DNA of 64,000 nt, taken from positions 214,148,001-214,212,000 of the forward strand of contig OZ024743.1 in NCBI GenBank assembly GCA_964016885.1, given 5' to 3'. This DNA is from Eledone cirrhosa (taxonomy: Eukaryota). The translations under genes and the position numbers were made by a program. Shown one piece after another: positions 7,934-61,209 of this stretch. The notes below the pieces were generated by a model that saw only the letters and a list, made by a program, of their open reading frames with translations, did not search any database and was not told where the DNA came from. Within the stretch, counting starts at the first letter, position 1. The number at the start of each line of letters is the position of its first letter.

Positions 7934-7971
<38 letters not shown>

Positions 7972-8027
7972 GACGTAAAATAAGAAAATTTTAAAAATTA
8001 AAAATTAACTTACTTACTAAAATTTTC

Positions 8028-8082
8028 ACTCCAACTAATTAGTTTCTGTAATCATCGAGAATTCATTACGTCATCAGGGAGT
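8028..8082 (-). ncRNA. Type I hammerhead ribozyme motif
   Basis: ACTCC CTGATGA C-GTAAT...ATTAC-A GAAA CTAATTAG TT GGAGT: 5-bp stem I, palindromic stem III, GUU site. Confidence 0.8.
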
Positions 8083-8376
8083 CTATTCTCAGCTAAGTCT
8101 CCAGGCAATGCGGACTCATATAAAAATAATAATTCGGTGGATGGAACAGCTAGCGGGGACTGAATTCCATAGCACTGAAAAAGTTCACTGTTTCTGGTCA
8201 AGTGGCAGATTCTAAAGAATCAATCACGTGACACTGAGGCTAGTCAGGAGGAGTGGGATGGTATAATGACAAGAGCCTACCACTACTACGATGAATTAGT
8301 AGTGGATTTGGCAAGTTTGCTCAACAAATAAATAATTTGGAGATAAATATAGAGTATTAGTATATTTAAATATACT

Positions 8377-8503
<127 letters not shown>

Positions 8504-8723: not shown

Positions 8724-8726
<3 letters not shown>

Positions 8727-9001
8727 CGTTTCTGAATTTGTTTAGCAAGATTCTTTATCTGAAATCGTGTGTTGAAACCGATATTGTTATACTTTGGGAG
8801 GGTCATGTTGCCAATAAGAAACACACGCACCAGTTGCTTTCACTTCAATTTATTATGTATTTATGAATTTATAAACTTACAAATCTACAAATTTACAAAC
8901 TTATAAATTTCTGGTTGGTTGGTTGGTTCCACAACCAGATAGTTGTTTATATATATAGTCATAGTCCTTTCGTCACACAATCTGTGACCTCTTCAGTGAC
9001 T
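8724..9001 (-). mobile_element. Solo pLTR of Penelope family C in (TA)n
   Basis: Near-identical to 51452-51712 in reverse complement. Confidence 0.9.
8957..9001 (-). ncRNA. Minimal hammerhead (family C)
   Basis: AGTCA CTGAAGA G GTCACA GATTG TGTGAC GAAA GGAC TA TGACT. Confidence 0.8.
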
Positions 9002-9164: not shown

Positions 9165-9165
9165 A

Positions 9166-9378
9166 CTGGCAACCTATATCACGTGAAGCGCAGTACTTAC
9201 CATCAACTACTACATAATGCTGTAACTAAGGATTACCGTAAAACTAATCGGTGCGTCATCAATGAAATCAACGATGCTGCGTTTAAAATCACATCTGATC
9301 TCAACATCCGGGACCGGACCGAACCTCTGGACCACATTTCTCCCCACTTTACCCTGAAGGATCACAAATCCAATTTCA
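9166..9378 (+). mobile_element. Inverted internal fragment of Penelope family A
   Basis: Reverse complement of ~11068-11279 with scattered substitutions. Encodes [18 protein letters not shown]...[11 protein letters not shown]. Confidence 0.85.
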
Positions 9379-9498
9379 TACATACCTTCACAAAACATAC
9401 GGGTAATATATACTTACCTATGCAAATAAGTAAACGAATAAACAAAACATATATTTAGCTCCCAGATCAAGACGTAAAATATCCACGTATAGATCGTA

Positions 9499-11627
9499 CT
9501 ATCCGTTAGGGTATAGCGTGGGGCTGTAATACAGGAGTGTTTTGTGCAATTTATGTTTACAATCCGAAATTGCCTCAGATTTTTTGTTTAAGATGTGGTT
9601 TGTGGCGTAGAGTATTTCCGCGGCCTCAGCGGCGCAGAGGTCCCATGGTCTTTTATTTCCGTTATACGATCTAGCCCTAGCTAGGATCTCCCAGTGTAAC
9701 TTATATTGGGTGTGGTTGTCTTTTAGACTTCAAATATAAGCTGAAAGTGACGTCATATTCCTTCTTAGAGCGTAACGAAAAGAATGGGTATGCATGTAAA
9801 GACGCTGCTTGAATCTATTGGCGGTTAACCCTATGTAGGCCCTACGGGACGTGGGTGTTACAACCTTACGTTTGTAGACAATGTTACTAGAGAGGCGTTT
9901 CCCGGATAGGGGGAAATCAACCCGATTCCTACAATTACAGTTAGTACTAACTACAGGGTTGCACGTGTTACTACGGCTAGGTAGTTTAACTAAATTTGAA
10001 GCTGTGATGTTATGTGCAAGGTTAGGAGTCGTAGAGTAAGACATTTAATAGTATTTCTATTAAAAAGTTTACTATATTTATGTGTAGGGGGAAAATGCTT
10101 CGTAATAAGGTAAAGAAAGATCTTAGCTAATGGTGTGGCCACCTACATATTATATGGTGGGTTATACCAACAAATGCGACGGGATCTATTTCTTCTAGGT
10201 CTATTTTCGTACTCTGTATATGCTACCTTATCGACAAATCCACTTCGAGCAAGAGCTTCATTGTAATAAGTGGAATGGTCGTTGAAAATGCGCTCGTTGG
10301 TGGAAAGACGGGAAAGCCTCAACGAAACGTTTCTTGCCAGGTTCTTTGTTATGCTGGCAGGATGGTTGGAATGCTTACTTATGTAATTAAGCGTATCATT
10401 CGGCTTTCTATACGGGTAATATAACCCATTCAATAAGTTGAGGGTAACGTCGAGGTAATTAACGACCGAGAGATTGGCATCAACCTGTATAGAGAGGTTG
10501 AAGCCTTTACAGAAGGCTGTGAGTACTTTTCTGAACCAGTCGCAAGCACGAGGTCCGCACTTAGTCATGGTCAAAAGACCATCGTCACGGTACAAACCAC
10601 CGCCCGCGTTGGGGAATTTGTCCTTGATAGAGAAAATAAGGAAAAGGCCGATAAGATCAGTAACCTCCGTAGAATCACTGGCGCCCATACTCACGTCGAA
10701 TGGGGTACTATTGGATGTTTTAATCCAAATAGAGTCGTCGAAATTAATCACCGACTTTCGAGCATTGAGGATGACATCAACTTCGAAATCCTTAACCACT
10801 GTGAGTGTTTTAGCGAAATTGATAGCTCTAATGAGAAGTGGTAAAGTGATGGAGGAGTAGTAATTGTTGATGTCGAATTGGATAAAACGGCAATGTTCCT
10901 TGTTACATATGCCGTTGAACCAATCAATCACCGCGAAGGAATTGTTCTACAGTGCAAGAGGGGCCAAACTTCTAATTTCAGGTATAATTCTATCAAGAAT
11001 CGTTTTACTAAGTCTACCTAAATCGGAATTCGTAGGGTTAATAAGCCGAATAGAGGGGTTGTTCGGAAAATTGGATTTGTGATCCTTCAGGTTAAAGTGG
11101 GGAGAAAAAGGGTCCAGAGGTTCGGTCCGGTCCCGGATGTTGAGATTAGATGTGATTTTAAACCCAGCATCGTTGATTTCATTGATGACGCACCGATTAG
11201 TTTTACGTTAATCGTTAGTTACAGGATTATGTAGTAGTTGATGGTAAGTACTGCGCTCCACTTGATATAGGTTGCCAGTTTTGTCTGAATGGACGTGCAC
11301 AGCATTAGAATCCTTAATAGAACGAATTCTATTCTTCAGGTCTTGCTGGAAGGAATTGCTCCTATTCCGAAATTTGATACGCCGAATGAGTTCCAAGACA
11401 GCATTTTCGAATGGTAGCAATCCTGGGTTACACGGGGGGTTATTATAGGTTTTAAATCCAAATTTATCCTATTTGTTGTCTGCTTTTCGCGGATTATCGA
11501 AGTAAAAGGCCCGCCAACGAAACCTTTTAATGAACGCGTCTGTTTTCTGTATCAGGAATTTTAGGTATGTTTTCCTGCTTGGTACGGGTATGTTCTTTGT
11601 AGAAATATTCAGATGTTGTTTCTGCAT
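9499..11627 (-). pseudogene. Penelope-like reverse transcriptase/GIY-YIG endonuclease ORF with several stops and a frameshift
   Basis: MQKQHLNISTKNIPVPS...KRFRWRA; IQFDINNYY; MGASDSTE; LYRDDGL; VNYLDVTL; WYNPPY; CNCR...NIVY...YIGLT...FKQR. The YRDD motif suggests a Nematis-like clade (inference). Confidence 0.92.
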
Positions 11628-11738
11628 GATGAATATAAGTCAGAGTGCTCAACCGAGGGAACCAAATAGTAATAATAATAAATTTATATCAAATATATAA
11701 GAACCGTAGAGCAAATATTTATTAAAATAACAGATTAA

Positions 11739-11788
11739 AGTTTAAGCAAAGAATCGCTGCTTTCACCCTTAACGGGATCTTCTGAAAC
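11739..11788 (-). ncRNA. Hammerhead-like motif with CAGAAGA core (family A); mutated inverted copy at 11840-11890(+)
   Basis: GTTT CAGAAGA TCCC GTTAA GGGT GAAA GCA...TGC TT AAAC, sense to and upstream of the ORF. Confidence 0.6.
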
Positions 11789-11906
11789 AAACAACGTTTT
11801 TTGAAATATCCACTTCTGCGTTTACAGATTGACTTTGTTAGTTTCAAAAGATCCCGTTAAGGGTGAAAGCAGCGATTCTTTGCTTAAACTTTAATCTGGT
11901 ATTTTA

Positions 11907-11951
<45 letters not shown>

Positions 11952-11953
<2 letters not shown>

Positions 11954-13699
11954 AACCAGTAAGACCCCGACAGCTGAGCTCAAGCCGTTTCGACGGCTAA
12001 TTCTGGACTAAATGAAAATTTATCCTGGTATTTAAATAGCCGATCTTCTAAAGGGGTAATTCCATATATGGTCAAAGTGATTGTCAAAAATCAGTAGTAA
12101 TTCTGTGGTTGCAAATTAGTAGGGGAGATGGTGGCTAAACCTGCCAGTAGGAGAAAGAGGGGAGGGGGTGGAGTAGACCCAATCAAGCGTTGGTAGTGCC
12201 AGCTACAGCTGGGCATGAGGTCAAAGAAGATACGGAGGAGGGGGAGGGGGAGGAAGTCGGAACGGTAGGTAGAAATATATAAGAAAAGAAAAAATACTGA
12301 GAGTGAAGAAAAGCAAATAAGTGTAAAGAAAAAAGTAAAGTAAATTAAATTCTACGACCTAGGTCTCAGGCTATTGTTATGACACGGGGGGGTAGACTAG
12401 GGCTATAACACCCCACTTGCCGATTTTGCAATGGGTAACCCCTGCTTGCCAAGGAAGACGTAAGATCTTCTTTGTATTCTTTTATCGCTTCCTTTATTTC
12501 CTTCCCCCCACTCTCCTTAGTCCTTCTACCCCAGCTCTTCTCCTTTGTCGGCGTCTTTTCTCGCCCACCCGAGGCTGCCCTTTGGCCCCATGTAGCCTTA
12601 GTACCCCCCCCCCCCCCATCCCCTCCCCTAGTCTATGATAGATTTGGCGGACTCCGCCCTTTATAGCAGTTGGCTTAGACCCCGGATACTTGCCCCCTTT
12701 TTCCGACCGCTCCCACTATTCTCTGTGCCCTCTATATTTCTTAGTGGCACTTATGCCATATTTTTTCGTTTCAGTATTTCTTGCTTCGCTTTTCTTCTGG
12801 GCGGGGTGGATTCTGAATTTATTTCTCCGTATTCTACCTTTATTTCGTACGAACTTTCATGTAGCTTGTTTTAGATCTTTTAGAGTTAGCATTAGTATAT
12901 ATTTTTCTCGGGACTCAGAATTATTATCTCGTACAAGTTCACTTTGCTGTACTGGGTCGTTGCTGGCCCGGGATGGAAACCTTTATGGTTTATTTCGTGG
13001 TAGTCTCTTTAGTATTTTGGCCCCTTTTGTTGACCCGTCACCGTATCATTTACGTACTTATACCTCTTAAAAGGGTCCTTGCCTAATCCGTCCCACCTAG
13101 TTCTTTTATTTATTTCGTTATTTCTTTATTTATTTATTTCTTTACTTCTTTCTTTCTTTCTTTATTTTATTCTAGCCTAACAATAGCCTGAGACCTAGGT
13201 CGTAGAATTTAATTTACTTTACTTTTTTCTTTACACTTATTTGCTTTTCTTCACTCTCAGTATTTTTTCTTTTCTTATATATTTCTACCCCCATTGTTCT
13301 ACCTACCGTTCCGACTTCCTCCCCCTCCCCCTCCCCTGTATCTTCTTTGACCTCATGCCTAGCTGTAGCTGGCACTACCAACGCTTGATTGGGTCTACTC
13401 CACCCCCTCCCATCTTTCTCCTACTGGCAGGTTTAGCCACCATCTCCCCTACTAATTTGCAACCACAGAATTACTACTGATTTTTGACAATCACTTTGAC
13501 CATATATGGAATTACCCCTTGAGAAGATCGGCTATTTAAATACCAGGATAAATTTTCATTTAGTCCAGAATTAGCCGTCGAAACGGCTTGAGCTCAGCTG
13601 TCGGGGTCTTACTGGTTCCTATTACCCACTCTACTACCTCAAGTATTGAGTACTTTGGTGCGTTATGGTCCACCTGGTTCCTTACCACATTTCCTTCGT

Positions 13700-13857: not shown

Positions 13858-13943
<86 letters not shown>

Positions 13944-13973
13944 AAAGAATAGAGGTGTAACACACAAGTTATT

Positions 13974-14209
13974 ATATATTGGTAAACGGAATAGAAAATG
14001 CTGACAAATTGTTCACATTCTAAAAATGGTTTAATTAGGAATAAAAGAGTATTAGTGATTGTATGGGTTAGTATTCAGTTGTGGTTTTAAGTTTTAAAAA
14101 CTTAAAACCACAACTGAATACTAACCCATACAATCACTAATACTCTTTTATTCCCAATTAAACCATTTTTCAACAGTGAACAATTTGTCAGCATTTTCTA
14201 TTCCGTTTA

Positions 14210-14218
<9 letters not shown>
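13974..14218. repeat. Hairpin palindrome (~120-bp arms) abutting (TA)n
   Basis: The arms are reverse complements around ~14096, with few mismatches. Confidence 0.92.
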
Positions 14219-14246
<28 letters not shown>

Positions 14247-16143: not shown

Positions 16144-16284
16144 TTGTGTATATATATATATATATTTGTATATATATATATATATACAGATTTTCTGAAG
16201 ACAGCATGTATATGTGAATATATATATATATATAGTAATAATAATACATTTGAAGACTAAAATCCAAAGAGGGCTCGATAAGGA

Positions 16285-17787
16285 TAAATATATATCAAAT
16301 ATTTAAGAACCGTAGAGCAAATATTTATTAAAATAACAGATATAAAGTTTAAGCAAAGAATCGCTGCTTTCACCCTTAACGGGATCTTCTGAAACTAACA
16401 AAGTCAATCTGTAAACACAGAACTGGATATTTCAAAAAACGTTGCAACCGGAGGAAGACAGGAAGACGATACTTTGGTTCGTGGAAACGTTCGCTGGCTA
16501 AGAACGGGAAAAAACGAATATAATACGTCATTAATAGGAGCAGTGAAAAACAATTACGCGCAAAGATAGAACAACGTTTATGGTATAAAAGAGGTCGTAG
16601 ACTAATGTTCTCTTAGGTGGTGCATAGAGACGTTCTCTGGCAATGAACGAAAAAAACGAAGATAATTCGTCATATGTGGAGCGTGGAGAACAATAGCACG
16701 CCAACACAAAACCACGTAAATGGTATAGCAGAAGTCGTAGACTAAATTCTAACTAGGAGACCGAATGAATCTCCGCTACAGAGTTAAGAACAAAGTAAAT
16801 AAATACAATACATAAGTAATAGAAATAAATAAATACATACACGCAAACAAATACGTACATACACAAGCATATGCAAAAACTTACCATAGGTAAACAAAAC
16901 CACGCACATATGTGTGTGTGTGTAAGCGTGTATAGAAATAAATAAATAATTATATAAACGTATATAAATAAATAAATACGTATATAACAAGCGCACACAC
17001 ATACCTACATGTAAATACACGAATGTTCGGAGACTTAAGTCAACCAAAACATGAAGTACACATATACACACGCCCTACATACGTACAAACCTGAATACTC
17101 ACACAGACGCAAAACTCCCGTATACACATAGCCGAACCATATGTACCAGAATATATAAAAAAATGATACGCCATAACAATAAAATATACGTACGAGAAGG
17201 TATACGTACCTTCACAAAACATACGGATAATATATACTTACCTATGCAAATAAGTAAAGGTATAAATAAAACATATACTTAGCTCCCACATCGAGACGTA
17301 AAATGTCCACGTATAGATCGTACTATCCGTTAGAGTATAACGCGGGGCTGTAATACAAGGAGGTTTTGTGCAATTTATGTTTACAAGCCGAAATTGCCTC
17401 ATATTTTTTGTTTAAGATGTGGTCTGTGGCGTAGAGTATTTCCAGGGCCTCAGCGGCGCAGAGGTCACATGGTCTTTTATTTCCGTTATACGATCTAGCC
17501 CTATCTAAGATCTCCCAGTGTAACTTATATTGGGTGTGGTTGTCTTTTAGACTCCAGATATAAGCTGAAAGTGACGTCACATTCCTTCTTAGAGGGTAAC
17601 GAAAAGAATGGGTATGCATGTAAAGACGCTGCTTGAAACTATTGGCGGTTAACCCTATGTAGGCCCTACGGGACGTGGGTGTTACAACCTTGCATTTGTA
17701 GACAATTTGTAGACAGTTTCAGAAGATCCCGTTAAGGGTGAAAGCAGCGATTCTTTGCTTAAACTTTAATCTGTTATTTTAATAAAT
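16285..17787 (-). mobile_element. 5'-truncated Penelope family A copy (GIY-YIG end, 3' region, pLTR) with an inverted pLTR at the truncation
   Basis: 17210-17705 matches 9385-9880. pLTR 16285-16445 matches 11684-11850. Inverted piece at 17715-17787. Hammerhead-like motifs at 16346-16396(-) and 17715-17765(+). Confidence 0.92.
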
Positions 17788-18356
17788 ATATATATATATA
17801 TATACATAATAAGGGTTGACGGACCCACTATATTTATCAATGACAGTACCGGTTGTATCTGAGCGCGCTCAATGGGCAATGTAAGATACATTACCAGAGT
17901 ATACACATAGTTATTCGCCTCAACACAACACACGTAAAATGGGTGCCTATAAGGTTCCAGGAATCGAGTTTCTGCAGGACTAATGAAGCAGTAAGGTGCA
18001 CTGCACCATCTCTCTGCATATATTATGCAACAATGCACAATCAGCTCATGCGGCTTCATCAGCGGGTATCGCCTAATCAATAACCAATCGATCGACATAA
18101 TCCAAACATCGGCCCGTGCCGGTCATGACTGTTTGTGACAACCGACACGGTAAAGCGAATAACTGGCAACCGATAGGACTTTATCTCTCAACTAGTCACT
18201 GATTTACAAATTTTACGTGGTGACGGGAAGCTAAAAAGAATCAATCTATTAGTTCCTGTCAGGAGCTCTCAGCCAACGTGTCTCACACACAAATTATCAA
18301 GGGGTGAAAAGATGGCTATTAGAAATAGCAGTTCACATTGATATTAAATAGAATGG

Positions 18357-19054: not shown

Positions 19055-19240
19055 TTGGATTGGCAGTATCGGTAGAGGGTCGGACGCCATGGTTTGCAGC
19101 ATAGAGTTACGGCCCGTTATGGTCTGAGTTCAAATCCCGCCGAGGTTAACTTTGCCTTTCATCCTTACGGGGTCGATAAAATAAAGTACCAATAATACAC
19201 TGGGATAATTGCTGGCCTTGTGCCTAGAGTAGAAACAATT
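19055..19240 (+). mobile_element. tRNA-derived SINE with a Meta/MESC-like core
   Basis: A-box-like TGGCAGTATCGG, B-box-like GAGTTCAAATCC, core GCCTTTCATCCTTACGGGGTCGATAAAATAAAGTACC, TSD ~ATTACTTATT. Confidence 0.85.
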
Positions 19241-20486
19241 ACTTATTTTAGTTAAATTTGTTTGATTCGTTATCGCATTTAATCATAATACCATCTGAAA
19301 GCTTTCCATATTGTTCATTTTATTTAAATTAATGATTGAAAGAAAACAATATTCAAAGCGTTGTTGAAATTGTTTTGTTACCTGGATTTATTCTAACCTG
19401 CAGATATTTTGCCTATCTGTAGATCTCAACTCCGTGTAAAACAGTGTTAAAAGATATGCATGTTAGAAAACCATAGTATCCAGATAAAATATAGTAGTCA
19501 ATATACCTTAGTTGTCAGATATTCCTTATGGCATCTGACCTCTTACGTCCTTGGAATGCTATGCTGGTATATTTAGGCATGATAAATCGTTAGTGTTATC
19601 AACATCTATATAAACCACCTGCTTCGGCATAAATGCCATCTGTTATTTTGAAAACAACGATATATAAATATTTTCTTTTCATATGTTTATTCTTGTATAC
19701 TCACTAAACATACACGCGAATTTTTTATTTTTCATTTTACCAGCATTTCCGGCATATGGGTATGAGGCTTGTTGAAAAACATGTGTAGAATAAATAGTTG
19801 TGAATTACATTCTATCATGTGAATATGAACATCATCCTATTATTGCAAAACATGTATCTCTCAACAATTTCATAAAACGTATTCTAGTATGATAAACAAA
19901 ACAGAATTTGGAATTTAACAACAAAACATGTTTTAACAATCTGTAAAATCTTGAATAGCCCACCTCATAAACGATATTAACAAACAACTCATTCTTATAA
20001 TTTTCTTCTAAATGTTATAAAATGTTATTAGAGAAATATGAAAAATATGATTTTCTACATGAGATAAAGTAAATATTTATGATCGTAAATACAAGGCAAT
20101 ATTAAAGACATTTACAATTTATGTTAACACATCCAAATGTGCGTATATAGTAAGCTGTTAGTATATCTATAAAGTTGTACATTACAACATTATCAGTTCA
20201 CATTTAGTTTTTGTGGATCTCTGGGCCAATCCCACTCTCTGAACATCGAAGGACTGGTCTACATCCTTGAATGCAAAGGAAGTCTCAGGTTTTATATCAG
20301 AGTGACCTTCCCCTTCTAATGAAGACTAGGCGTCTCTCGCTCTACACAAAAATAACTTTATTGGATCCCCTGTGTTCCTCAGATTTTTGAGGGGATTTTG
20401 TTCTTTAAGTACAAAATTCTCCGAGCACAAATCCACTGCCTTTCTTAACCGAGAGATTCTAAAGATAGCCCCCCCCCCCCACACAC

Positions 20487-20529
<43 letters not shown>

Positions 20530-21552
20530 CGCATACACACACACACACACAAATACACACATACACATATACGTATGTGTGTGTTGTGTCTTTCTGTGTG
20601 TACATGTTCGTGTGTGTATTTGTGTCCGTGTATGCATATATATATATATCTATATGCATGAATGTATAACAATATTTTATTTATTATGCATATATATTTA
20701 CATGTGACTGTTTAAAATTGTGAGTTTTCATGTATGGACAGTATTAAGCAAATATTTCGTGTGCACCCACGCACGTATAGCAATTGCAATTTAATGTTAC
20801 CGCTTCCGCTTCATCAATTATATGAGTTGTATGAAATATCATCACGCCACGTTACTAATATTTCTCGAATATTCTTTCAACTTCTATATCTAACTTTGAA
20901 TTCTCCTAGAATATTCACATTTACTTTGAAAAAATTGTTTCATATGCTCCTGAGTTTTCTCTGTAAACTACATAATATTTTCAGCGTCAAACCTCTGGAA
21001 GCATATACAGAACAAACATATACACATACTTCTAAATATTTTCAACGTCAGGGATAGATATAGGGAAAACTGCCAAGCAACGAGAGTATCAGCGCATATC
21101 CCACGTAGTACACATTTAGAAATCAGATTGTTGTCTAAGCAATATATATATAAATAAATAAATAAATAGATATATATATATATGTATATATATAGGATAA
21201 CTAGGTATTGTTAAAGGTAATCCAGTTAGAGGTTGCGAGTACACTGTACTGTGGAGAGTTTTAACGTAAGGCGTTGTTTGACTCAACAAGATGTTTCCTT
21301 AGTTAGGTGGTGAGCTTAAGAGAATTCCCATGCAGCTGGTTCTTTGAGTAATAATAGTGAAAGAGTGAAGAATAACCTCAGGAAGCACATACATAATATT
21401 CCGATGATTTGATAATCAGAGACACACATGAAATTAAGTGGCGTAATTTCTGGAGACAGCGGCCTTTAGACTCACCTGATCAATGAAACACTTGTTAAAA
21501 CTGTAAATAAACACATTTGTTCAGCCGACCATGTTATTCTTCACCATTTCAC

Positions 21553-21585
<33 letters not shown>

Positions 21586-21755
21586 ATAAATAAGAAATTG
21601 GAATAAATGCTCTGAAATAGCGATATATATGTGAATATAGACATAGAATATTCGAAAATATTCTGTATGTTTATAATAAACATTTTGAAGACCTAATCGC
21701 TATAGAATAGAATACGTCACGTATTACAATTAGATTCTCGACAAAAGCAAGGGAA

Positions 21756-21798
21756 GCAATCTACGCGTTTCATTCTTGTTAGAAATCTTCAGGACTAC
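21756..21798 (-). ncRNA. Minimal type I hammerhead
   Basis: Reverse complement of the 22121 motif. Confidence 0.85.
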
Positions 21799-22120
21799 AT
21801 ATCCAGTGCTTTTATCGAGAATGACACAGCTAGAGACTTATAGAATACTTAGCTGTGTACAGGAACTGGTTTGAAAGAGCGGTTGCCGGTCCGGCAGAAA
21901 TTAGAAATTGGAATAAATGCTCTGAAATAGCGATATATATGTGAATATAGACATAGAATATTCGAAAATATTCTGTATGTTTATAATAAACATTTTGAAG
22001 ACCTAATCGCTATAGAATAGAATACGTCACGTATTACAATTAGATTCTCGACAAGGTTATCCAGTTAGAGGTTGCGAGTACACTGTACTGTGGAGAGTTT
22101 TAACGTAAGGCACTGGATAT

Positions 22121-22163
22121 GTAGTCCTGAAGATTTCTAACAAGAATGAAACGCGTAGATTGC
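22121..22163 (+). ncRNA. Minimal type I hammerhead
   Basis: GTAGTC CTGAAGA T-TTCT AACA AGAA-T GAAA CGCG TA GATTGC, with palindromic ACGCGT stem III. Confidence 0.85.
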
Positions 22164-22430
22164 TTCCCTTGCTTTTGTCGAGAATCTAATTGTAATACGT
22201 GACGTATTCTATTCTATAGCGATTAGGTCTTCAAAATGTTTATTATAAACATACAGAATATTTTCGAATATTCTATGTCTATATTCACATATATATCGCT
22301 ATTTCAGAGCATTTATTCCAATTTCTAATTTCTGCCGGACCGGCAACCGCTCTTTCAAACCAGTTCCTGTACACAGCTAAGTATTCTATAAGTCTCTAGC
22401 TGTGTCATTCTCGATAAAAGCACTGGATAT

Positions 22431-22473
22431 GTAGTCCTGAAGATTTCTAACAAGAATGAAACGCGTAGATTGC
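22431..22473 (+). ncRNA. Minimal type I hammerhead (tandem copy)
   Basis: Identical to 22121-22163, 310 bp downstream. Confidence 0.85.
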
Positions 22474-22608
22474 TTCCCTTGCTTTTGTCGAGAATCTAAT
22501 TGTAATACGTGACGTATTCTATTCTATAGCGATTAGGTCTTCAAAATGTTTATTATAAACATACAGAATATTTTCGAATATTCTATGTCTATATTCACAT
22601 ATATATAT

Positions 22609-22689
<81 letters not shown>

Positions 22690-22694
22690 TATAA

Positions 22695-22745
<51 letters not shown>

Positions 22746-22803
22746 CAAAGACACACATATATATATATTATATATGTGATAACTTTATATATTATATATA
22801 TAT

Positions 22804-22874
<71 letters not shown>

Positions 22875-24289
22875 TATATATATATAAAGTTTACTGTCTC
22901 TGATACTTAGAAATCTCAGTGTATGGATGAGATATTTAATATATTATCTACTCAGAGAAGTAATTCAATATATTAAAACTTCAGTCAAAATCCCTATTTT
23001 GGGAGATATAATCTAGACCGACCAATATAAGTCGATTTTACTCATACAGTTCCCCAATAGTGTTTTCTGGAATTCATGAAACAGCATTAACTATTCGAAG
23101 GCATTGGAATAACCAATATTGGAAGAATTACAACTTAGTCATCCGGGTGAGAGTTCTTTGCAATAAGAGAAATTAAATGCCTATCCTACATACCATGTTT
23201 CTCTGATGTAGATCGAAAGGTGAGTGTGTAGGGTAAAGTGTGGGTCATGAGGTTCGTGGTGAAATGGAATCTATAGCACGTATGGGGTCTTGCGTAAGCA
23301 TGGTAACTGAAAGAGGATTTACAAGGGAGAAGGGAGTTGAGGACATTGCGATTCCTACAATGTCGGGTGCTATTAAAGGAAATAATATTGGAAGGAAGAA
23401 ATGGGGGTAAGGAGCGAGATTAAAATGGAAACGACGGAAGAGACGGATGATCGTCCTCCAGAGAAGAAATGTTTAGATGTGGTAGGTCTAGAAGAAGAGT
23501 ACGCGGTAGGTGAAATTGATGTGGTGTGTTGGCGCAGTGTAAAAACGATGGTATTGCCGATTCGACGGACACAGGTACGTGAGGCTTGGTCTAGAATATG
23601 GAGGTGTCAAAGCAGCGGGATTAGACCAATCACGTAAGGAGCATGAATCTCAAAATTATGTTAAAAGTCAACAGATGGAGGAGAGTGATGGATTTGGACT
23701 AGAGAATGGAGTGGGTGATTTCAGTAGAGAGGAATATAATTGTGTGACAGGGAATGTCTACGTGGATCTGTGTGTTTGTGATTGTACACATACATTTGGC
23801 CAGGTAAATATTTTTGTTCTTTATTATGACAAAATAATATATGATTCACATTTACTACCATATATCTGGAGACTATAAAAGTTATATATATATGCATTAT
23901 ATACTACAGCTTCATCATATTTTATTTCTGTATTTATTAATGTTATCTATTGTCATGAAATTGTAGAACAATAACATTTTAATTTAATTGTATTTCATTT
24001 TCTTTTTCATAATACTAATATTCTAGCATTCTTAAAAGTAATAAGTTCAAAACACATTTATCTACAGCTATTTCATACTTCCCAAACACCATTGAACTAC
24101 TACAATATTGAAAGCAAACTTATACAATTTTAATCTACAAAATCTATAGAACTATATGCGGCGTATTTCTCTTTCGTATTTTGATGCACTTTAACAATAA
24201 TTTTATGAAGCATGTTGAATACGTGGATTGATAGGAAGGCATTTTACACATTTTAAAAAGAAAATATACTATTGTTTTATATTAACTGC

Positions 24290-30049: not shown

Positions 30050-31900
30050 GAGACAACTTTTGCTGAAATTTTCTGAAGCCATAATGTAAATAAATCGATT
30101 CTCTATATTTGCATGTAAGCAGTTTGTGAATGCCTAGCGCTTGATAAGAATTGATGTGAAATACATTTTATGTAGTAAATATATCCAACGTATTACACAA
30201 AAATAAATTTATAACCTTAAACTGACAGAAACATTATCTGAAAAGAAAAGTGGGGTTGTTTTAAGCGAATACGTGTACTGTCCGTTTAAAGAAAAAAAAC
30301 ATTTGCTCAAATTATGCTTCTTATGCATTAAAAGAGTTTAACAAATCTGAAGCAACATAAAAATGAATGAGACTTCTAATAAAATATATATTGATTCACA
30401 AATTTGTTCAAATAACCATGCAGGTGGGAAAATAGTACTTAATTTACAATTAGAAGATAGGTGAAAATATGATATCGCCCATGTGATATCTATAATAGAC
30501 ATAAAGAAATGAATGAAAAATATATGGTAAATATCAGTTGAAAATAGTAGCTCCTGAATCTGAACAGAAATAACTATCGTTTCTAAAATAATTTGAAGGC
30601 TCTATATTTGGATATGAGAGTTAGTCAATAAATATGGTCTCAGGACTTGACTGTTAGTTTATTAGTATCAAACCTGGGTGTATAAAGGGAATGATCTCGG
30701 GAGGTAAAGAGAAGAACAAACTGGGCAAACAATGTTTTTCTAAGCCGTTTTTATGATTCAGTTTTTCCACATGCAATACATAGCATCACTAAAATATTTT
30801 AGAAGTGATAATCATTTGAAACCATCAGAAAAATATCACTGAATTAAGTCAATTCCTACTCCATATATTTCATATTGACATATCAATGTTACAATAGGTT
30901 CTTTTCTGCAACTCTAAGCTATAAGAGATGTCTGAAGCACAGACTCAATTTTGACATAGTAGCTATAAATCATTACACTAGAGAAAATATATTTTCAAGC
31001 TGATATTATCCACATAAATGATTAGAAAGAAATTCAGAACGAATGTAATGAATACTCTATATTATTTTAGCTCTGATTAGGGCGGAGTAACGGCTGTATT
31101 AGTAGCGCGTCAGACAACATGCTTTGCAGCATATAATTATTGTCCTTTACGTTCTGAGTTCAAATCCCGCCGAGGTTTTGCCTTCCATCCTTACAGTGTC
31201 GATAAAATAAAACGCCAGTAATGCACTGGGATAATTATTGGCTTTGTTCCAAAAGAAGAAACAATAATTTTAGTTCTGAAATTTTAATCACTATTTTTAC
31301 AGTTTAGGGTTGCACATCATGTGGCAGGAGACAAAACGAAGATAACTAGCGTGTGGGAATCTACATGGTAGTTTCATTTTATAGGAATTGAGTACATTAT
31401 ACTTGAGATAACCGCCATATTTGTTTTCTATTTTTGCATGTTACTAGTCATGAATCCTTCAGTGACTAGTGACTGAAGGATCAATGAATTTGTTAACACG
31501 TTATTCTAGTTTATCCTTTCAGTCTTATACAATTGACTTCTTTACATACAGCTAGAATCAAAAGCCATATCAACTATTGTTGCGATACAATTTCTATTGA
31601 GGAGATCATAAAACGTAATAATTGGTTTCGGTGTTAGGATTATGTAGAATCTAGAAACGGATAATAATGTATAGCTGAAGGTAATATATTTCACAATTAC
31701 TCTATATGAGACAGACAAAATAAGCTTTTTTTTTCTTGATTGTTAGAGTCGCTTTGGGAATAAAGTTATTGTCTATTTGTAGACTTCTATCCACTGATGG
31801 TACGAGGGAAGCAGACGTATGTATTAATTAGAAAAGTAGTAAAACAGAGATTGGTGAGTTGAAAAGCAATTTAACAAACGAAGATATTATTCGCTAAATG
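30050..31900 (+). pseudogene. TLR-like pseudogene (LRR, transmembrane, TIR remnants)
   Basis: LHKNKFITLN (30193), KSLTNLKQ (30332), TM-like YIILEITAIFVFYFCMLLVM (31393), TIR-like VESR and LLES downstream. Confidence 0.5.
31078..31270 (+). mobile_element. tRNA-derived SINE
   Basis: Same family as 19055. TSD ~TTTTAG(C/T)TCTGA. Confidence 0.85.
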
Positions 31901-34147: not shown

Positions 34148-34338
34148 GGCGGTGGATTGGCAGTATCGGTAGAGGGTCGGACGCCATGCTTTCCAGCATA
34201 GTTACGTCCCTTTACGATCTGAGTTCAAATCCCGCCGAGGTTGACTTTGCCTTTCATCCTTACGGGGTCGATAAAATAAAGTACCAGTAATGTACTGGGG
34301 GATTGCTGGCCTTGTGCCTAAAATAGAAACAATTATTT
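34148..34338 (+). mobile_element. tRNA-derived SINE, full length
   Basis: Closely similar to 19055 and 37765. Confidence 0.9.
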
Positions 34339-34399
34339 ATTGCTATCTCTCTATGTGTGTATATACATCTCTGTCCGCCTATATGTCTATCTTCCAGAA

Positions 34400-37249: not shown

Positions 37250-39250
37250 ACCTAGCGGCAAAAAGTTTGTTGTAGTATGACTTTTACCCCATAGGGTCTA
37301 ATCGGCATTTCCTGTCGCCTGGCAAACATTATTTCTTCCATTTATTAGAAATAAATTCAGCTTCATTTTCTTAATGTAATGCTGTGAAAAGTTTAATAAT
37401 TGTTTCCTCTTCAAGTTGTTCTAATATTTATTTTGGTGGTAAGAATAGGATGTACGACGTGGAGCTGAAAATTTCTCAGGCTGGAAATCCATACGCTGAC
37501 CAAAATGTTCTCAGGGAATGACAAATATAGATTATCTCTACACACATTTCCTGGAAAGGAGCAATCTAGTTATTAATAATAGATTCATTAATACATGCAA
37601 GATTTCACAGCTCTTGCATCACTCCTTTCATAGTCAGCCTATGGAATTTTCAACCTACCGTCGTAGAAACAATGAGGGAAAAACAAATAAGTATAGAAGT
37701 CGTATAAAATGCAGTTACTTTTAAAACAATAAATAGTTATGGCTTTCAGGCCAGTAGTGGTAATAATTGTTTCTACTTTAGGCACAATGCCAGCAATTAC
37801 CCAGTGCATTACTGGTTCTTTATTTTATCGACCCCGTAAGGATGAAAGGCAAAGTCAACCTCGGCGGGATTTGAACTCAGATCGTAAAGGGACGTAACTA
37901 TGCTGGGAAGCATGGCGTCGGACCCTCTACCGATACTGCCAATCCACCACCCAGTAGTGGTAATAATGTTTTCTGATTCAGGCGCAAGGCCAGAAGTTTT
38001 GGGGGAGATGAACTTTGATCAAATTGTCCCCAGTGCTTTACTGATACTCATTTTATCGATCCCGTATAGACGAAAGGCAAAGATTTGAATTCTGACCGTA
38101 AAGAGTCGTTCCACAAAGCTGACCGCATGTAAACCGACACTCTACCTATGCTGTCAATCCATCGTCCTCATTAATGGTAATAATGAAAGAATATAAACAA
38201 TAGACTAAATATATGGTTTCAAACAATAGTGTCCGAATTGTGGAGGAAATACTTTGTTACATTCATACTAGGCTGTTTTACATGCTTTTTGGGAAACCTA
38301 AAGAATCTTTAATTTACATTAATACACTTCCAAAACATTCTAAGATTACTAACAACCTAGCTAAGAATATCTTCTTTAGTATCTCTCTATATATGTGTAA
38401 ATATTTCACCACATAGTATAGTATACTCCGCTGCGGAGGCCTAATAAGATTGTTTTTATCAATTATCTTTTTCAATCAGGTCCCTGAAATATGCTCTTCG
38501 TGTTGGACGACTATCATATGTATTATCTGCTTAGTGTGTTAGTTTCAGAGTTAACCACTCCAAGAATTAGGTGCTTTTCTACTAAATACTTGGCCGTGTA
38601 TTCGTAAGCTAACTCTGCAACTGTATGATTGACATTAATGTATCTTTCATACATTTGAAGGCTCTAATCGAAATAAACTTATTTTCACCTAAAAAATAAT
38701 CAGGTTTGCTCACGCAGATCCGAGGAAAATATATATGTATTGAAGTTCCGAAGAAAATATGTTTATACAATTTTCCACTTACTCACGAGAAAATATTCAA
38801 TGAACACATGCTTACGCATGGTATCAAATTTCTTTTATAAATCAAGTATTCTATTTTTTCCAACACTATTCTTTCTAAGGCAAATGTGTGATTTCATTCC
38901 GAAACCCGTTTCTTGAGCCACTACTTGAAAATAAAAGTAGACAATTCTAAACTAATTACACGTTAGACTAATGTATTTTTGGTATTCTTAAATGCTTACT
39001 AATTTAGAGTTGAAATGGGACATTTGTAAACGACAAATGGTAGTTAAGTGTTTGAGAAGCATTTAACCTACAGGCAATGTCGAAAACCAAATCCGTAACG
39101 CTGATTTTACGCCTTTTATTAGCTCATAATTCTTTTTGAATTGCAGTTCCACAAGCAAGTGTCAGTTATGTTCAGCACTTCAAGTATAGAATGTGCTTTG
39201 AATAATATTATATGTTAATATAAAGCATATAAAATGAATCAGCGTTATAT
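37250..39250 (+). pseudogene. TLR-like pseudogene interrupted by SINEs
   Basis: GMTNIDYLY (37515), NLAKNIFFSI, LCNC (38613), box-2-like CDFIP (38887), VDNSKLI...FRVEMG. Confidence 0.55.
37765..38170 (-). mobile_element. Two adjacent SINEs: a young copy (37765-37950) at the tail of an older copy
   Basis: 17-bp TSD CCAGTAGTGGTAATAAT at 37751 and 37951. Confidence 0.88.
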
Positions 39251-39466: not shown

Positions 39467-39700
39467 GTTGTTATACTTTGGGAGGGTCATGTTGACAATA
39501 GGAAAACACAGGCACTAGTTGTTTCACTCCAATTTATTATAAATTAAATTTATAAATTTAATTTATAATAAATTGGAGTGAAAGCAACTGGTGCGTGTGT
39601 TTCTTATTTGCAACATGACCCTCACAAAGTATAACAATATCGGTTTCAAGACAGGTTTTCAGATAAAAAATCTTGCTAAACAAAATCAGAAACGAAATAT
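39467..39700. mobile_element. Fold-back fragment of the family-C pLTR 3' end
   Basis: 39467-39550 is the inverse of 39560-39640. Matches 51580-51712. Confidence 0.85.
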
Positions 39701-40481: not shown

Positions 40482-41727
40482 CAGGTGTTGGACAAAATAA
40501 TGGAAACACCATAACATTTCAAACAAATTAATTTTAATATGGGGTAGGACCGCCTTTGGCAGTAATTACAACTTAAATTCTACGAGGTATGGACTCGTAC
40601 AAAGTTTGAATTGTTTCCAAAGGAATTTTTGTCCATTCTTCAGCTAAAACAGTCTCCAGTTCTTGTAGTGATTTTGGAGGATATCGACTCCTTACTTATT
40701 TTTCTAAAATGCACCATAAATGGTCAATAATCTGGGGACTGTGGGGGCCAGATAAGATGTTCAACTTCATTAGAATGTTCCTCGTGCCATTCAGTAACAA
40801 CTTCAGCTGTGTGAATTGGTGCATTATCATCCTGAAAGATTGCGTTTCCCTCCGGAAACAGTTCCACAAACATAGGATTAATTTGTTGAGATAAAATGCT
40901 TAAATAGTCTTGACTATTAATTCTGCCATAAAGGCAAACCATTGGCCCGGCGGATTCCCAAATACAGCCCCCCCCCCCCCCAGATCATCACAGATCCTCC
41001 TCCATGTTTAACATTTGGAAGAAGGCAGTCTGTTTCAAATGTTTCTTTTGGCTGTCTCCACACGTATATTCGGCCGGTGGTCGGAAATAAGGTAAAGGAT
41101 GATTGGTCCAAGAAAATAACATACTTCCACTGCTCTATGGACTAATACTGTAGGTTTTTACTCGACCCTAAACGCTTTGCAACGTTTGTTTTTGAAAGTA
41201 GTGGTTTTGTGATTGCAGCCCTCCCTTGAAATCCGGTTTGTACAGCTCCCGGCGAACAGTTTTTGTGGAAACTGGGTTCTCGGTGTGGTCATTAAACTCT
41301 GTAGTTAATTTGGGAGCTGTACTTTTGTGATCCTTTCTAACAATTCGCGTAAGAGTCCGGCTGACCCTATCTGAATGTTTTGGTTTTCTTCCGGAGATTT
41401 GTTTCTCAAAGGCTGTCATTACTTTCGAGACATTACTTCTTGATACACCAAACATTTCGGTAGTTTTTGTTACGCTAGCGCCTGCCATACGAGCACCAAC
41501 AATTTGACCTCTTTGAAAGTCCGATAGATCTGTCATTTTAATGAATTTTAATTACCTGTTTCTGATGTTATCTGAAAAGAAACAGCAATTTTAACAAAAC
41601 ATATTAAGCACCACTAATAATAAATAAAAAATATAAAATAAATAAACAAGCTTTTGACAGTTTTATAGATATTTCAAAATTATTATGCTATGATGATAGG
41701 TGTTTCAATTATTTTGTCCAACCCCTG
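40482..41727 (-). mobile_element. Tc1-family DNA transposon with a frameshifted transposase
   Basis: TIRs CAGGTGTTGGACAAAATAATGGAAACACC / GGTGTTTCAATTATTTTGTCCAACCCCTG, TA TSD. Peptides MTDLSDFQRGQIVGAR, VKHGGGSVMIWG, FQDDNAPIH, WPPQSPD. Confidence 0.95.
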
Positions 41728-47280: not shown

Positions 47281-47351
<71 letters not shown>

Positions 47352-47615
47352 GTTAAAGTGTACATCTACATATGTATACGGAAGTATTAGTATGCATATA
47401 AATACACACATGTATACATATGTACATGTACTGAGTTTTTCACTAGACACTTTACAGTGAGTGTCAGCTAGTCTGTATGTAACCACACAGACGGACCGGG
47501 TTTTAGAGTCATACGGTATACATATGTAGATGTACACTTTAACTTAATTGTTTAAGCGTCAGTCATACAAAAGTGAGTTAGAGGCGAAACGAAATTTAAT
47601 TTCGTTTCGTTATTT

Positions 47616-47660
<45 letters not shown>

Positions 47661-47668
<8 letters not shown>

Positions 47669-48172
47669 AGAATTGATGCTCTGAAATAGCGATATATATA
47701 TATGAATGTATATATAGTGTATTTTGCAATACACTGTATGCTTAATTAAAAGCATTTTGAAGAACTTACGCTATCGTTTTAAACTATGTCACTTACTTGC
47801 TTTTTCAGCAAACAAAGGGAGATAAGCTGACAGATCTCTGTTTCGTAATGTTGGTACTCCTCAGAGCTTACCACTCCTTTTGCCTACTGGAATTTATGAA
47901 TGTTTGATTCTTATAGAATTCCAGTAATATTCAGGAATTGATTATACAGGGCGGTTGCAAGTCCAGCAAAAATTGAAAATTAGAATTGGTGCTCTGAAAT
48001 ACCGAATAGGAGTACCAACAGTTCGGAACAGAGATCTGTCAGCTTATCTCTCTTTGTTTGCTGAAAAAAGAAGTAACTGACATAGTCACTACTGTAAAAC
48101 AATAGCGTAAGGTCTTCAAAATGCTTTTAATTAAGCATACAGTGTATTGCAAAATGCACTATATATACATAC
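47661..48172 (-). mobile_element. Retrozyme/pLTR-like unit related to 21591-22600, with an inverted partial copy
   Basis: Shares GCTCTGAAATAGCGATATAT, CATTTTGAAGA and GCGGTTGC. The unit start is repeated near 47982. 48009-48172 is the inverse of 47700-47860. Confidence 0.8.
47823..47870 (-). ncRNA. Canonical type I hammerhead
   Basis: TAAGCT CTGAGGA GTA CCAACAT TAC GAAA CAGA GA TCTG TC AGCTTA: full core, G10.1-C11.1, GUC site. Confidence 0.9.
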
Positions 48173-48173
48173 A

Positions 48174-48507
48174 TGCCTCTCCTTTGTTCTGTCCTACGCC
48201 ATCCAAGATGGCGTAGGACAGAACAAAGGAGTGGCACAAAAAACAAAGAAAATCACCCCATTCACTGAAGAGGTCACATAATGTGTGACGAAATAACTTT
48301 GACAATATATAAACAACCATCTGGTTGTGCAACCAACCAACCGGAAATTTATAAATTCCTAAATTTATAAATTTATTATAATAAATTGAAATGAAAGCTT
48401 CGGGTGCGTGTGTTTCTTATTGGTAACATGACCCTCCCAAAGTAAAACGATATCGGTTTCAACACACGTTTTAAGATAAAGAATCTTGCTAAACATATTC
48501 AGAAACG

Positions 48508-48510
<3 letters not shown>
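48174..48510 (+). mobile_element. Older family-C pLTR with a 30-bp 5' hairpin and a degenerate hammerhead (48261-48303)
   Basis: Homologous to 51400-51712. 48174-48237 forms a hairpin. Confidence 0.85.
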
Positions 48511-49229: not shown

Positions 49230-49430
49230 CATACATGCATACAGGTACACATACATATATGCACGCATCCGTTTAGCCGACGTTTATTATAACGCCGCTT
49301 TGTTCGTTTGTTTGTCAACAAACCGACAGCCTGAATTTATGCCTGTTTGTTGACAAACAAACGAACAAAGCGGCGTTATAATAAACGTCGGCTAAACTGA
49401 TATATGTATGTGTACCTGTATGCATGTATG

Positions 49431-49467
<37 letters not shown>

Positions 49468-49945
49468 ATACTTTGGGAGGGTCATGTTGCCAATAAGAAA
49501 CACACGCACCAGTTGCTTTCACTTCAATTTAATTTAATATATATTTATAAATTTACAAATTTATAAATTTCTGGTTGGTTGGTTGGTTCCACAACCAGAT
49601 AGTTGTTTATATATATATAGTCATAGTTCTTTCGTCACACACTCTGTGACCTCTTCAGTGACTGGGGATTTCTTTCTTCGTTTCTGTGCCTTTCCTTTCT
49701 TCTATCCTACGCCATTTTGTTTGTGTGTGGGTTGCGTGCTCAGTTTGCGCATGCGCCACATCCGGGTGTCTGTGTGTGTTTGTGTTCATTTTTCTATTTT
49801 TATATTTTTATATTTATATTTGTTTGTTTATTTATTTATTTATTGTTGGTTGGTTGTTTGTTCTATGTGTGTGTGTGTTTTCATTTTGTGTGTGTTTTCA
49901 ATTGTAAGTTGTTTATATATGTGTGTGTGTGTTTTCATTTTGTCC

Positions 49946-50540
49946 TTAATTGTAAGTTGTGATGTTGCTGTTCCACTCATATTTTCTATTTAATTTTGGT
50001 TTTAATTCTTTTATGCTTACTGCCTCTGTAATTTGCCTAAACATTGCGTCTTTCTTGTGTGTGGATTCTATTTTTATTTCTATGCTCTCTAATTTACCCC
50101 TGTGTTCTATCTTAGCATGTTGGTAGAGCACAGATGATTCTTTACTATCTTGGAGGTCTCGCCAGTGTTCATTTATTCGTTCCCCTATACTACGAGCTGT
50201 CTCACCTATGTACACTATATTTTTGTTTCTACATTGTCCCTCAGTACATCTTATGCTATATACTACATTTCTAGTTTTACAGTTAATATGGGGGCTTATT
50301 TTACAGGTTATACATTTCTTATCTATACATGAGGGTCTTTGGAACGGGTATGTCTTGCTAATAAGTGTTTTTACGGAGGTACCAGGTCTTTCTACTATCT
50401 TAATATTGAGATTATGTTTCTTTAGGGCCCTTCTAAATTTGTAGGCTAGTTCACCTCTAGGGGTTGTATTGATGAACATTACACTCTGGTATTTATTGCT
50501 ATCATACCATGAGTTTATTCTATTGGCCTTGTTCTTAGTT
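49946..50540 (-). CDS. GIY-YIG endonuclease C-terminus of a PLE polyprotein (inverted copy)
   Basis: C..KCITC..C..RNVVY.I.C..C..VYIGETARS..R..EH; RQITEAVSI..LNRKYEW. Confidence 0.85.
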
Positions 50541-50552
50541 ATTAATAGAAAG

Positions 50553-51147
50553 AACTAAGAACAAGGCCAATAGAATAAACTCATGGTATGATAGCAATAA
50601 ATACCAGAGTGTAATGTTCATCAATACAACCCCTAGAGGTGAACTAGCCTACAAATTTAGAAGGGCCCTAAAGAAACATAATCTCAATATTAAGATAGTA
50701 GAAAGACCTGGTACCTCCGTAAAAACACTTATTAGCAAGACATACCCGTTCCAAAGACCCTCATGTATAGATAAGAAATGTATAACCTGTAAAATAAGCC
50801 CCCATATTAACTGTAAAACTAGAAATGTAGTATATAGCATAAGATGTACTGAGGGACAATGTAGAAACAAAAATATAGTGTACATAGGTGAGACAGCTCG
50901 TAGTATAGGGGAACGAATAAATGAACACTGGCGAGACCTCCAAGATAGTAAAGAATCATCTGTGCTCTACCAACATGCTAAGATAGAACACAGGGGTAAA
51001 TTAGAGAGCATAGAAATAAAAATAGAATCCACACACAAGAAAGACGCAATGTTTAGGCAAATTACAGAGGCAGTAAGCATAAAAGAATTAAAACCAAAAT
51101 TAAATAGAAAATATGAGTGGAACAGCAACATCACAACTTACAATTAA
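50553..51147 (+). CDS. GIY-YIG endonuclease C-terminus of a PLE polyprotein, 5'-truncated
   Basis: Same 177 aa as the inverted copy. The frame is open upstream of the Met (SWYDSNKYQSVMF), so this is a truncation, not a standalone gene. Confidence 0.85.
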
Positions 51148-51451
51148 GGACAAAATGAAAACACACACACACATATATAAACAACTTACAATTGAAAACA
51201 CACACAAAATGAAAACACACACAAGACAAAATGAAAACACACACACACATAGAACAAACAACCAACCAACAATAAATAAATAAATAAACAAACAAATATA
51301 AATATAAAAATATAAAAATAGAAAAATGAACACAAACACACACAGACACCCGGATGTGGCGCATGCGCAAACTGAGCACGCAACCCACACACAAACAAAA
51401 TGGCGTAGGATAGAAGAAAGGAAAGGCACAGAAACGAAGAAAGAAATCCCC

Positions 51452-51496
51452 AGTCACTGAAGAGGTCACAGAGTGTGTGACGAAAGAACTATGACT
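51452..51496 (+). ncRNA. Minimal hammerhead (family C)
   Basis: AGTCA CTGAAGA G GTCACA GAGTG TGTGAC GAAA GAAC TA TGACT. Confidence 0.8.
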
Positions 51497-51709
51497 ATAT
51501 ATATATAAACAACTATCTGGTTGTGGAACCAACCAACCAACCAGAAATTTATAAATTTGTAAATTTATAAATATATATTAAATTAAATTGAAGTGAAAGC
51601 AACTGGTGCGTGTGTTTCTTATTGGCAACATGACCCTCCCAAAGTATAACAATATCGGTTTCAACACACGATTTCAGATAAAGAATCTTGCTAAACAAAT
51701 TCAGAAACG

Positions 51710-51751
<42 letters not shown>

Positions 51752-53136: not shown

Positions 53137-53561
53137 AATAGCTTAATTATATTATATTAACTAATATAAGTTATTTGTTTCCAATGAGCAATATTCAATA
53201 TTTATTTGTGGTCTAACGTTAAGCATTGTGTTTCTCTATTGTGATGACGAAGCTCCAAGTTCACTGACCTTCAATTCAATACATCGAAATCATAATGAAT
53301 ATAAGCACGAAATTGGAAAACAATATGACATAAAGAGAACGTAACAATATAAAAGCGAAAATGACAGAAGTCACCAATTGTTAAATATATTCTTCTTATA
53401 TGAGACAAATATTCTAAACCATAAATTGATTATTTCTTTTATACATCATTTTCTATTGTGTTTAATATTTAATAATATTTCAATTATGTAATGTATTATT
53501 ACATTTTCACTGAGGATTTGGAGGATATTTTAAGTGATATAGTAATTCACCACTATATACA

Positions 53562-53750
53562 TAATTGTTTCTACGTTAGGCACAAGGCCAGCAATTACCC
53601 AGTGTATTACTGGTACTTTATTTTATCGACCCCGTAAGGATGAAAGGCAAAGTTAACCTCGGCGGGATTTGAACTCAGAATGGCAAGGGCCGTAACTCTA
53701 TGCGCCAAAGATATGGCATCCGACACTCTACCAATACTGCCAATCCACCA
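53562..53750 (-). mobile_element. Full-length SINE
   Basis: TSD CACTATATACATAAT on both sides. Confidence 0.9.

Positions 53751-60589: not shown

Positions 60590-61209
<620 letters not shown>

Follow-up and report, generated by a model that had tools for sequence, protein, structure and literature searches.

Hammerhead-bearing tandem repeats have been described in animals as the metazoan non-LTR retrozymes (Cervera and de la Pena 2020), which in the available portion of that paper include the axolotl families Rtz_331 and Rtz_353 as well as mussel and coral families (PMC7229834). As far as the accessible text of a 2020 review goes, retrozyme repeats carry no motif that identifies a helper (PMC7761336), and it has already been published that retrozymes derive from PLEs as non-autonomous elements (bioRxiv 10.64898/2026.07.22.740005). 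PLE insertions have an anatomy of their own, given in the available part of PMC8557442: one copy is inverted and 5'-truncated, a tail of 30-40 bp marks one end only, and (TA)n targets are preferred; the same text describes them as strongly 5'-truncated partial tandems, structures that trouble assemblies. For an anole PLE, the tail was traced to the interval separating two internal sites of RT initiation, and its protein was shown to nick AT-rich DNA and to prime extension on both strands (PMC11167929). With regard to cephalopods, 235 matches to hammerhead-1 were counted in the giant squid genome, according to the accessible part of its paper. Literature queries combining retrozyme with octopus or cephalopod gave incidental co-mentions only among the matches listed, supplementary tables being outside their scope and a prior listing there possible, and queries combining non-autonomous, hammerhead, inverted and tail gave reviews only among the matches listed.

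The locus considered here lies in a stretch of 64,000 nucleotides, analysed as a whole and called the window. It is likely that its 310-bp, protein-free tandem hammerhead unit is a PLE-derived non-LTR retrozyme, inserted into (TA)n by a Penelope-type RT/endonuclease acting in trans, and the best reading of its sequence-level features is that of a new, candidate non-LTR retrozyme family. An earlier, sequence-only reading had proposed an ORF-less retrozyme-type tandem hammerhead unit mobilised by PLEs, a proposal now supported by closed contigs in three of four public sequencing runs, the tail, the inversion and the TA target. The parts of the locus are as follows.

21214 to 21272, + strand: probable source of the filler, part of a distinct segment with TA on both sides (21195-21552)
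21553 to 21587, no strand: left (TA)n-rich target flank
21588 to 21622, - strand: one-sided 3' tail of about 35 nt, made of unit sequence and missing at the right arm end
21593 to 22054, - strand: left arm, 1.49 units, its 5' end 18 nt past a predicted cut site
21756 to 21798, - strand: type I hammerhead motif within the left arm, with its cut predicted after 21762
22053 to 22111, + strand: filler of 59 nt between the arms, 58/59 identity to 21214-21272
22110 to 22606, + strand: right arm, 1.60 units, without a tail, abutting (TA)n directly
22121 to 22163, + strand: first type I hammerhead motif, core intact, predicted cut after 22157
22158 to 22467, + strand: predicted 310-nt monomer, 34.8% GC, strongly self-paired
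22431 to 22473, + strand: second type I hammerhead motif, predicted cut after 22467, within the inverted arm
22599 to 22886, no strand: right (TA)n flank

The two arms are inverted, with their 5' ends facing inward and TA runs outside both. The + arm (22110-22606) is 497 nt long, or 1.60 units, and shows 0 mismatches against the periodic extension of monomer 22158-22467; the same holds for the - arm (21593-22054) of 462 nt, or 1.49 units, which bears out the earlier count of about 1.5 opposite-strand units within (TA)n. The direct repeat has a spacing of 310 (22107-22296 and 22417-22606), and the inverted arms are 100% complementary over 432 nt (21623-22054 and 22175-22606). With a period of 310 bp and a GC content of 34.8%, the unit falls within the retrozyme range (approximately 150-450 bp, GC below 50%). 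The monomer had been called non-coding, and indeed its longest ATG ORF has 30 codons and the longest stop-to-stop frame of the concatenated unit has 59. That ATG frame, at 22236-22328, crosses the RT-start and tail region. There is no RT or GIY-YIG ORF in 21588-22606 of the kind that defines an autonomous EN+ PLE, such ORFs belonging only to other families of the window, and no LTR-type direct flanks were seen in the repeat comparison of the window. The TA runs on both sides are what a (TA)n or AT-rich target would leave, in a window of which around 10% lies in TA runs or at most 12 nt from them. Also of PLE type are the inverted 5'-truncated copy beside the 5' end and the tail of about 35 nt, carried by the left arm only and within the 30-40 bp expected. 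Both arm ends, the tailed and the untailed, recur as TA junctions in public run X1. The 59-nt filler and the one-arm tail of about 35 nt had been missed in the earlier reading.

Hammerhead cores are located at 22127 and 22437 on the + strand, both of them intact, and at 21792 on the - strand, with predicted cuts after 22157, 22467 and 21762, confirming that identical hammerheads stand 310 bp apart. A type I hammerhead thus described recurs in at least two consecutive units by descriptor and is not called by Rfam. The descriptor, drawn up after the motifs had been seen, gave 5 matches in the window versus 0 in each of 20 block-wise dinucleotide shuffles. Rfam returned no match at the gathering score across the whole window and, at relaxed E-values (E<=10), no hammerhead in the unit (family A), its relative A' or family B; the miRNA-type matches were discarded as hairpin noise. 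The predicted motif comprises a helix I of 6 pairs, prolonged by a long stem, a helix II of 4 pairs with a U.U at its base, and a weak helix III of 1 pair with a palindromic loop. The MFE of 22120-22166 is -5.8 kcal/mol, and the cleavage-competent cis fold of the core lies at +2.1 kcal/mol versus an MFE of -4.6. Two isolated cores favour the double-hammerhead form (-17.7 versus -11.6 kcal/mol), which has a probability of 0.0 in the full tandem transcript. The unit is a putative self-cleaver, and the lack of an Rfam call and the cis and tandem folds count against it, as does the comparison with Xenopus, where of nine predicted retrozyme dimers only one showed cleavage in vitro (bioRxiv 10.64898/2026.07.22.740005); axolotl retrozyme hammerheads, in the available text of PMC7229834, cleave poorly alone and better as dimers. 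Self-pairing of the monomer is pronounced, with folding z-scores of -3.97 (linear) and -4.36 (circular) and none of 100 shuffles as stable.

The inverted arrangement bears on what the inserted copy could make. In the predicted + read-through transcript the second hammerhead is buried in the 432-bp duplex, with a helix I probability of 0.0, and the single hammerhead of the - read-through transcript would likewise be buried; a transcript starting at 22055 is predicted to form both helices I, with probabilities of 0.65-0.99. Because the read-through duplex would bury the hammerheads, circle release would require a start between the arms, and the inserted copy is probably a poor or inert source of circRNA unless transcription starts there. 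Release of a circle from the locus itself, as suggested earlier, is therefore doubtful on these pairing predictions for read-through RNA, and the long dsRNA expected from the same transcript is supported, as a prediction, by the 432-bp hairpin.

The window contains a relative of the unit, named A' to set it apart from the unit itself (A), in two pieces.

47667 to 48005, - strand: A' family, a single tailed unit whose hammerhead differs from that of A and possesses a full helix III
48008 to 48170, + strand: second, inverted arm of A', without a tail and with 88% identity to the first

A' (47667-48170) has 67-77% identity to A and a similar inverted, one-tailed layout. It was the sole match when the unit was compared with the other PLE families of the window for a shared 3' end, 8 of the 9 comparisons giving no significant alignment, and the unit sequence was found in no ORF-bearing PLE of the window. 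When A is aligned with A', 16 of the 59 pairs predicted differ at both partners, helix I with its extension accounting for 12, as against 0-1 in slid controls; this covariation rests on two sequences, from which the structure was also derived. Given these compensatory changes, selection on the fold of the A/A' unit is likely. The A' hammerhead is canonical, with its full helix III, and an A'-like contig is present in run X6, where it reads through the tail. A' is the better candidate for a cleavage assay than A. The 30-codon frame is also in-frame in A' despite indels that sum to 3, at a position that corresponds to the ORF start of family B. It is possibly the relic of a PLE ORF start, a shared frame having a one-in-three chance.

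The same insertion footprint is found elsewhere in the window, which is rich in insertions of this kind. Taking as clean a footprint in which TA abuts one arm and is separated from the other by 34-80 additional nt, the one-sided form is clean at 5 loci of other families (11952, 13973, 39468, 47347 and 49464); at 16321 and 47670 it was recognised by eye, since TA inside the arms upsets the measure there. The other inverted pairs examined number 12, and the remaining 5 have no clean fit. Identical arms and inversion are the local norm in the window. The back-to-back duplication, first taken as unusual, is hence the standard form of a PLE insertion and recurs at no fewer than 7 other loci of the window. 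The notion of the inversion as a special dsRNA device was rejected, as it recurs across unrelated families.

Several of the neighbours are PLEs with recognisable ORFs. Family B, at 49464-51711, is a near-perfect 2.2-kb palindrome that holds the 3' end of a GIY-YIG ORF (PF01541) and a hammerhead-bearing pLTR; it has a one-sided tail of approximately 60 nt, hammerhead-like cores, and arms that are mismatch-free over 592 and 307 bp. Further family B pLTR pieces occur at 8725-9000, 39468-39696 and 48204-48509, and Pfam added no RT domain in six homologs of the family B ORF. Family C (9165-11914, - strand) is a broken PLE with RT and a GIY-YIG-like domain and 74 homologs; a pLTR in inverted orientation lies at 11840-11914 and another piece at 16230-17789, and the family C linker presumably resembles that of the Hydra clade. 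The named homologs of the neighbouring PLE ORFs are all distant (coral 42%, argonaut 38%; two homolog searches). Inverted pairs in TA repeats are seen at 11952-13699, 13940-14219 and 47347-47610, each with a one-sided extension, and at 49267-49401. A type I hammerhead-like motif unlike the unit, with its core at 8077 (- strand) and a palindromic helix III, sits between microsatellites at 7968-8380. Other residents are a SINE-like repeat of about 190 nt with at least 5 near-full copies (19056-19241, 31092-31284, 34153-34341, 37764-37946 and 53561-53747), LINE-type RT fragments (PF00078; 26470-27357 and 58152-59141) and Tc1/mariner fragments (41168-41551 and 60620-61051).

Among the alternatives, the one that fares best regards the unit as the multi-copy pLTR, or 3' tandem terminus, of an autonomous ORF-bearing PLE, with the arms 5'-truncated before the ORF was reached. 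Strong 5' truncation and partial tandems are indeed what PLE insertions look like, the window has short ORF-less inverted pairs from families that do bear ORFs (e.g., 39468-39696 of family B), and the ATG frame that passes through the tail in A, and stays in-frame in A', is like the ORF start of family B. However, that frame ends after 30 codons, and both arms exceed one unit without reaching any ORF sequence.

Public sequencing runs weigh further on this question. Six runs (4 studies, four organism codes) contain 74-81% of sampled words, no RNA run being among the matching public runs listed, and contigs were compared over 22030-22440 for runs X1, X3, X4 and X6, with X2 and X5 left out. X3, X4 and X6, from 3 studies, each gave one self-closing contig of 340 nt with a step of 310 and a joint from 22419 to 22110, and these contigs pass unbroken through both genomic arm-end positions; as the run records do not state DNA or RNA, they may reflect DNA tandems; contigs do not tell a circle from a tandem, and they lose rare variants. 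The dominant contig path thus runs from unit to unit, with 310-nt closure in 3 of 4 runs, and since no closed cycle of 310 nt would be expected from a pLTR that never occurs without its ORF, this favours a unit free of an ORF over an ORF-bound pLTR. X1 gave 702 contigs over the unit, with identities of at least 99% (272), 95-99% (176), 90-95% (158) and below 90% (96). The family had been called young, which suits the insertion itself with its identical arms and does not suit the family, which spans ages across these contigs. Among the loose ends listed for X1, TA runs follow 22296 in 10 contigs and 22327 in 1 contig, positions that are the untailed and tailed 3' ends of the window locus. None of the 8 loose ends listed points to a long ORF; where identifiable they lead into TA runs, a tandem unit or A'-like sequence, two X1 ends being unassigned. 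The loose ends considered are those listed, a further 45 lying outside the listing, and ORF-attached copies may exist besides them. Overall, the pLTR explanation is unlikely, if still to be reckoned with.

Other details of the runs are of lesser weight. One X1 contig, and one only, with a depth of 2.65, breaks exactly at 22157, a weak hint at the cut site; an X1 joint at 22158 was dropped as a cut-site junction, the letters in between continuing the family sequence. No contig in the four runs spans 22030-22043 at the locus's own junction, a gap that proves nothing. By exact 22-nt patterns, the unit had no match in JGI metagenome contigs or IMG/VR.

If the unit is a retrozyme mobilised by a PLE, its arrival could be pictured in five steps. 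A source locus elsewhere would have been transcribed into multimers, which would then have served uncut or, after cleavage by their hammerheads, been closed by ligation into a circle of 310 nt. The PLE protein would have nicked both strands in (TA)n and started cDNA at two internal sites, 139 and 174 nt past the cut site, giving the untailed and the tailed arm, respectively. Each cDNA would have passed the cut site and extended over 1.5-1.6 units, on a template other than a plain cut linear monomer. Finally, the cDNA ends would have been joined through 2-nt microhomologies and a 59-nt patch copied from nearby DNA. On a cut linear monomer cDNA could reach at most 139 or 174 nt, the actual arms are 497 and 462 nt, and the cut site is passed two times in one and a single time in the other, each time with an exact junction. 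As the arms are longer than a cut monomer permits, a circle or an uncut multimer probably served as template, the two being about evenly matched. A circle is not required, since the anole PLE uses unprocessed RNA as its main substrate and cleavage is dispensable there (PMC11167929).

The filler at 22053-22111 has a 2-nt microhomology at both junctions, and a comparable filler is absent at the 9 other arm centres checked in the window. Its source may be the DNA nearby or a further copy of the donor sequence, the latter being possible because part of the donor sequence is abundant (high depth) in run X1. The segment that holds the donor (21195-21552) is 358 bp long, TA-flanked and without an ORF, and its donor part appears repetitive in X1. 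Such a templated 59-nt patch shows DNA repair at the junction, and the copies in the locus are identical and have in common two letters that are rare in the runs; both facts would suit a second alternative, in which the extra units were made at the DNA level, by local duplication or foldback repair of a single short insertion or as a satellite-like repeat, without an RNA multimer or circle. Against it, the arms stop at two stereotyped ends of the family seen in X1, and at their equivalents in A', as two RT starts predict, and the tandem junction is general to the family, which makes a purely DNA-level origin improbable. An assembly or chimeric-read artefact behind the inverted duplication, to which the 100% identity of the arms and the known trouble of assemblies with PLE structures might point, is very improbable, given arms that are unequal as in PLE insertions with a one-sided tail, a like layout in A' with arms only 88% identical, and a filler that differs from its donor at one base.

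Returning to a retrozyme copied by PLE machinery, the two shared letters invite a more specific reading. The locus has G at 22162 (3 of 3 copies) and at 22177 (4 of 4), where all four runs read A (in X1, about 99% of the depth). The shared G letters would be expected if a single template molecule, or a single homogeneous donor, had been copied. At both stem positions the sense strand has changed from A to G opposite U, with a 5' U neighbour, and ADAR editing prefers a 5' U neighbour. The locus might then be a fossil left when a dimeric PLE enzyme reverse-transcribed, in rolling-circle fashion, one circular retrozyme RNA that had undergone A-to-I editing, a speculative and rather unlikely account: the G at both positions may simply be fixed in the species or individual of the window, the species of the runs may be a different one, and two sites are too few. 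A literature query for retrozyme with ADAR found only an unrelated review. If it were true generally, every insertion would preserve the edits of one individual germline circRNA molecule, and PLE-driven mobilisation through circles would be proven.

How the locus stands among the known systems can now be set out. Metazoan non-LTR retrozymes have, like this unit, a 150-450 bp tandem unit with a type I hammerhead in each, GC below 50%, no ORF and a self-paired monomer, and, in the available text of PMC7229834, HHR_Amex1 shares the one-pair palindromic helix III and HHR_Amex2 the U.U at the helix II base. The sequence is different, and the locus is known from sequence and predicted fold alone. 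Arms of just 1.5-1.6 units, paired in inverted orientation and carrying a PLE tail, are undescribed for retrozymes in the accessible portion of PMC7229834. The non-autonomous PLE derivatives (Li, Clavereau and Pollet, bioRxiv 10.64898/2026.07.22.740005; Chlamys/MRC1 in the available part of PMC8557442) also have an ORF-less, head-to-tail, PLE-related unit and co-occur with autonomous PLEs, as the unit does here. The definition in the preprint (10.64898/2026.07.22.740005) of two consecutive complete hammerheads with an MFE below -5 kcal/mol takes in the unit narrowly, at -5.8. The link to PLEs was made there by phylogeny and co-occurrence, whereas here it is made by insertion anatomy, no parent pLTR of the unit having been found in the window. 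With canonical EN+ PLEs (Penelope/Poseidon and Neptune; PMC8557442, as far as its text is available, and PMC11167929) the locus shares the inverted 5'-truncated copy, the one-sided tail and the AT-rich or (TA)n target. Their hammerhead lies 140-160 nt upstream of the first RT start, the corresponding distances being 139 for A, 136 for A' and 164 for family B. Unlike them, the locus has no RT or GIY-YIG ORF, its unit repeats directly, and it contains a 59-nt templated filler.

The helper enzyme of animal retrozymes has so far been argued indirectly, and the insertion scar points to a PLE. Genome-wide counts of tails, units per arm and locus-private variants would test both PLE mobilisation and a circular template. 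A tandem hammerhead unit is ordinary for animals, in which such repeats are widespread, as inversion is for PLEs, and it is the coincidence of both that is the useful point: an ORF-less hammerhead tandem with a PLE scar, beside ORF-bearing PLEs with a like scar, gives an anatomical tie to the PLE machinery.
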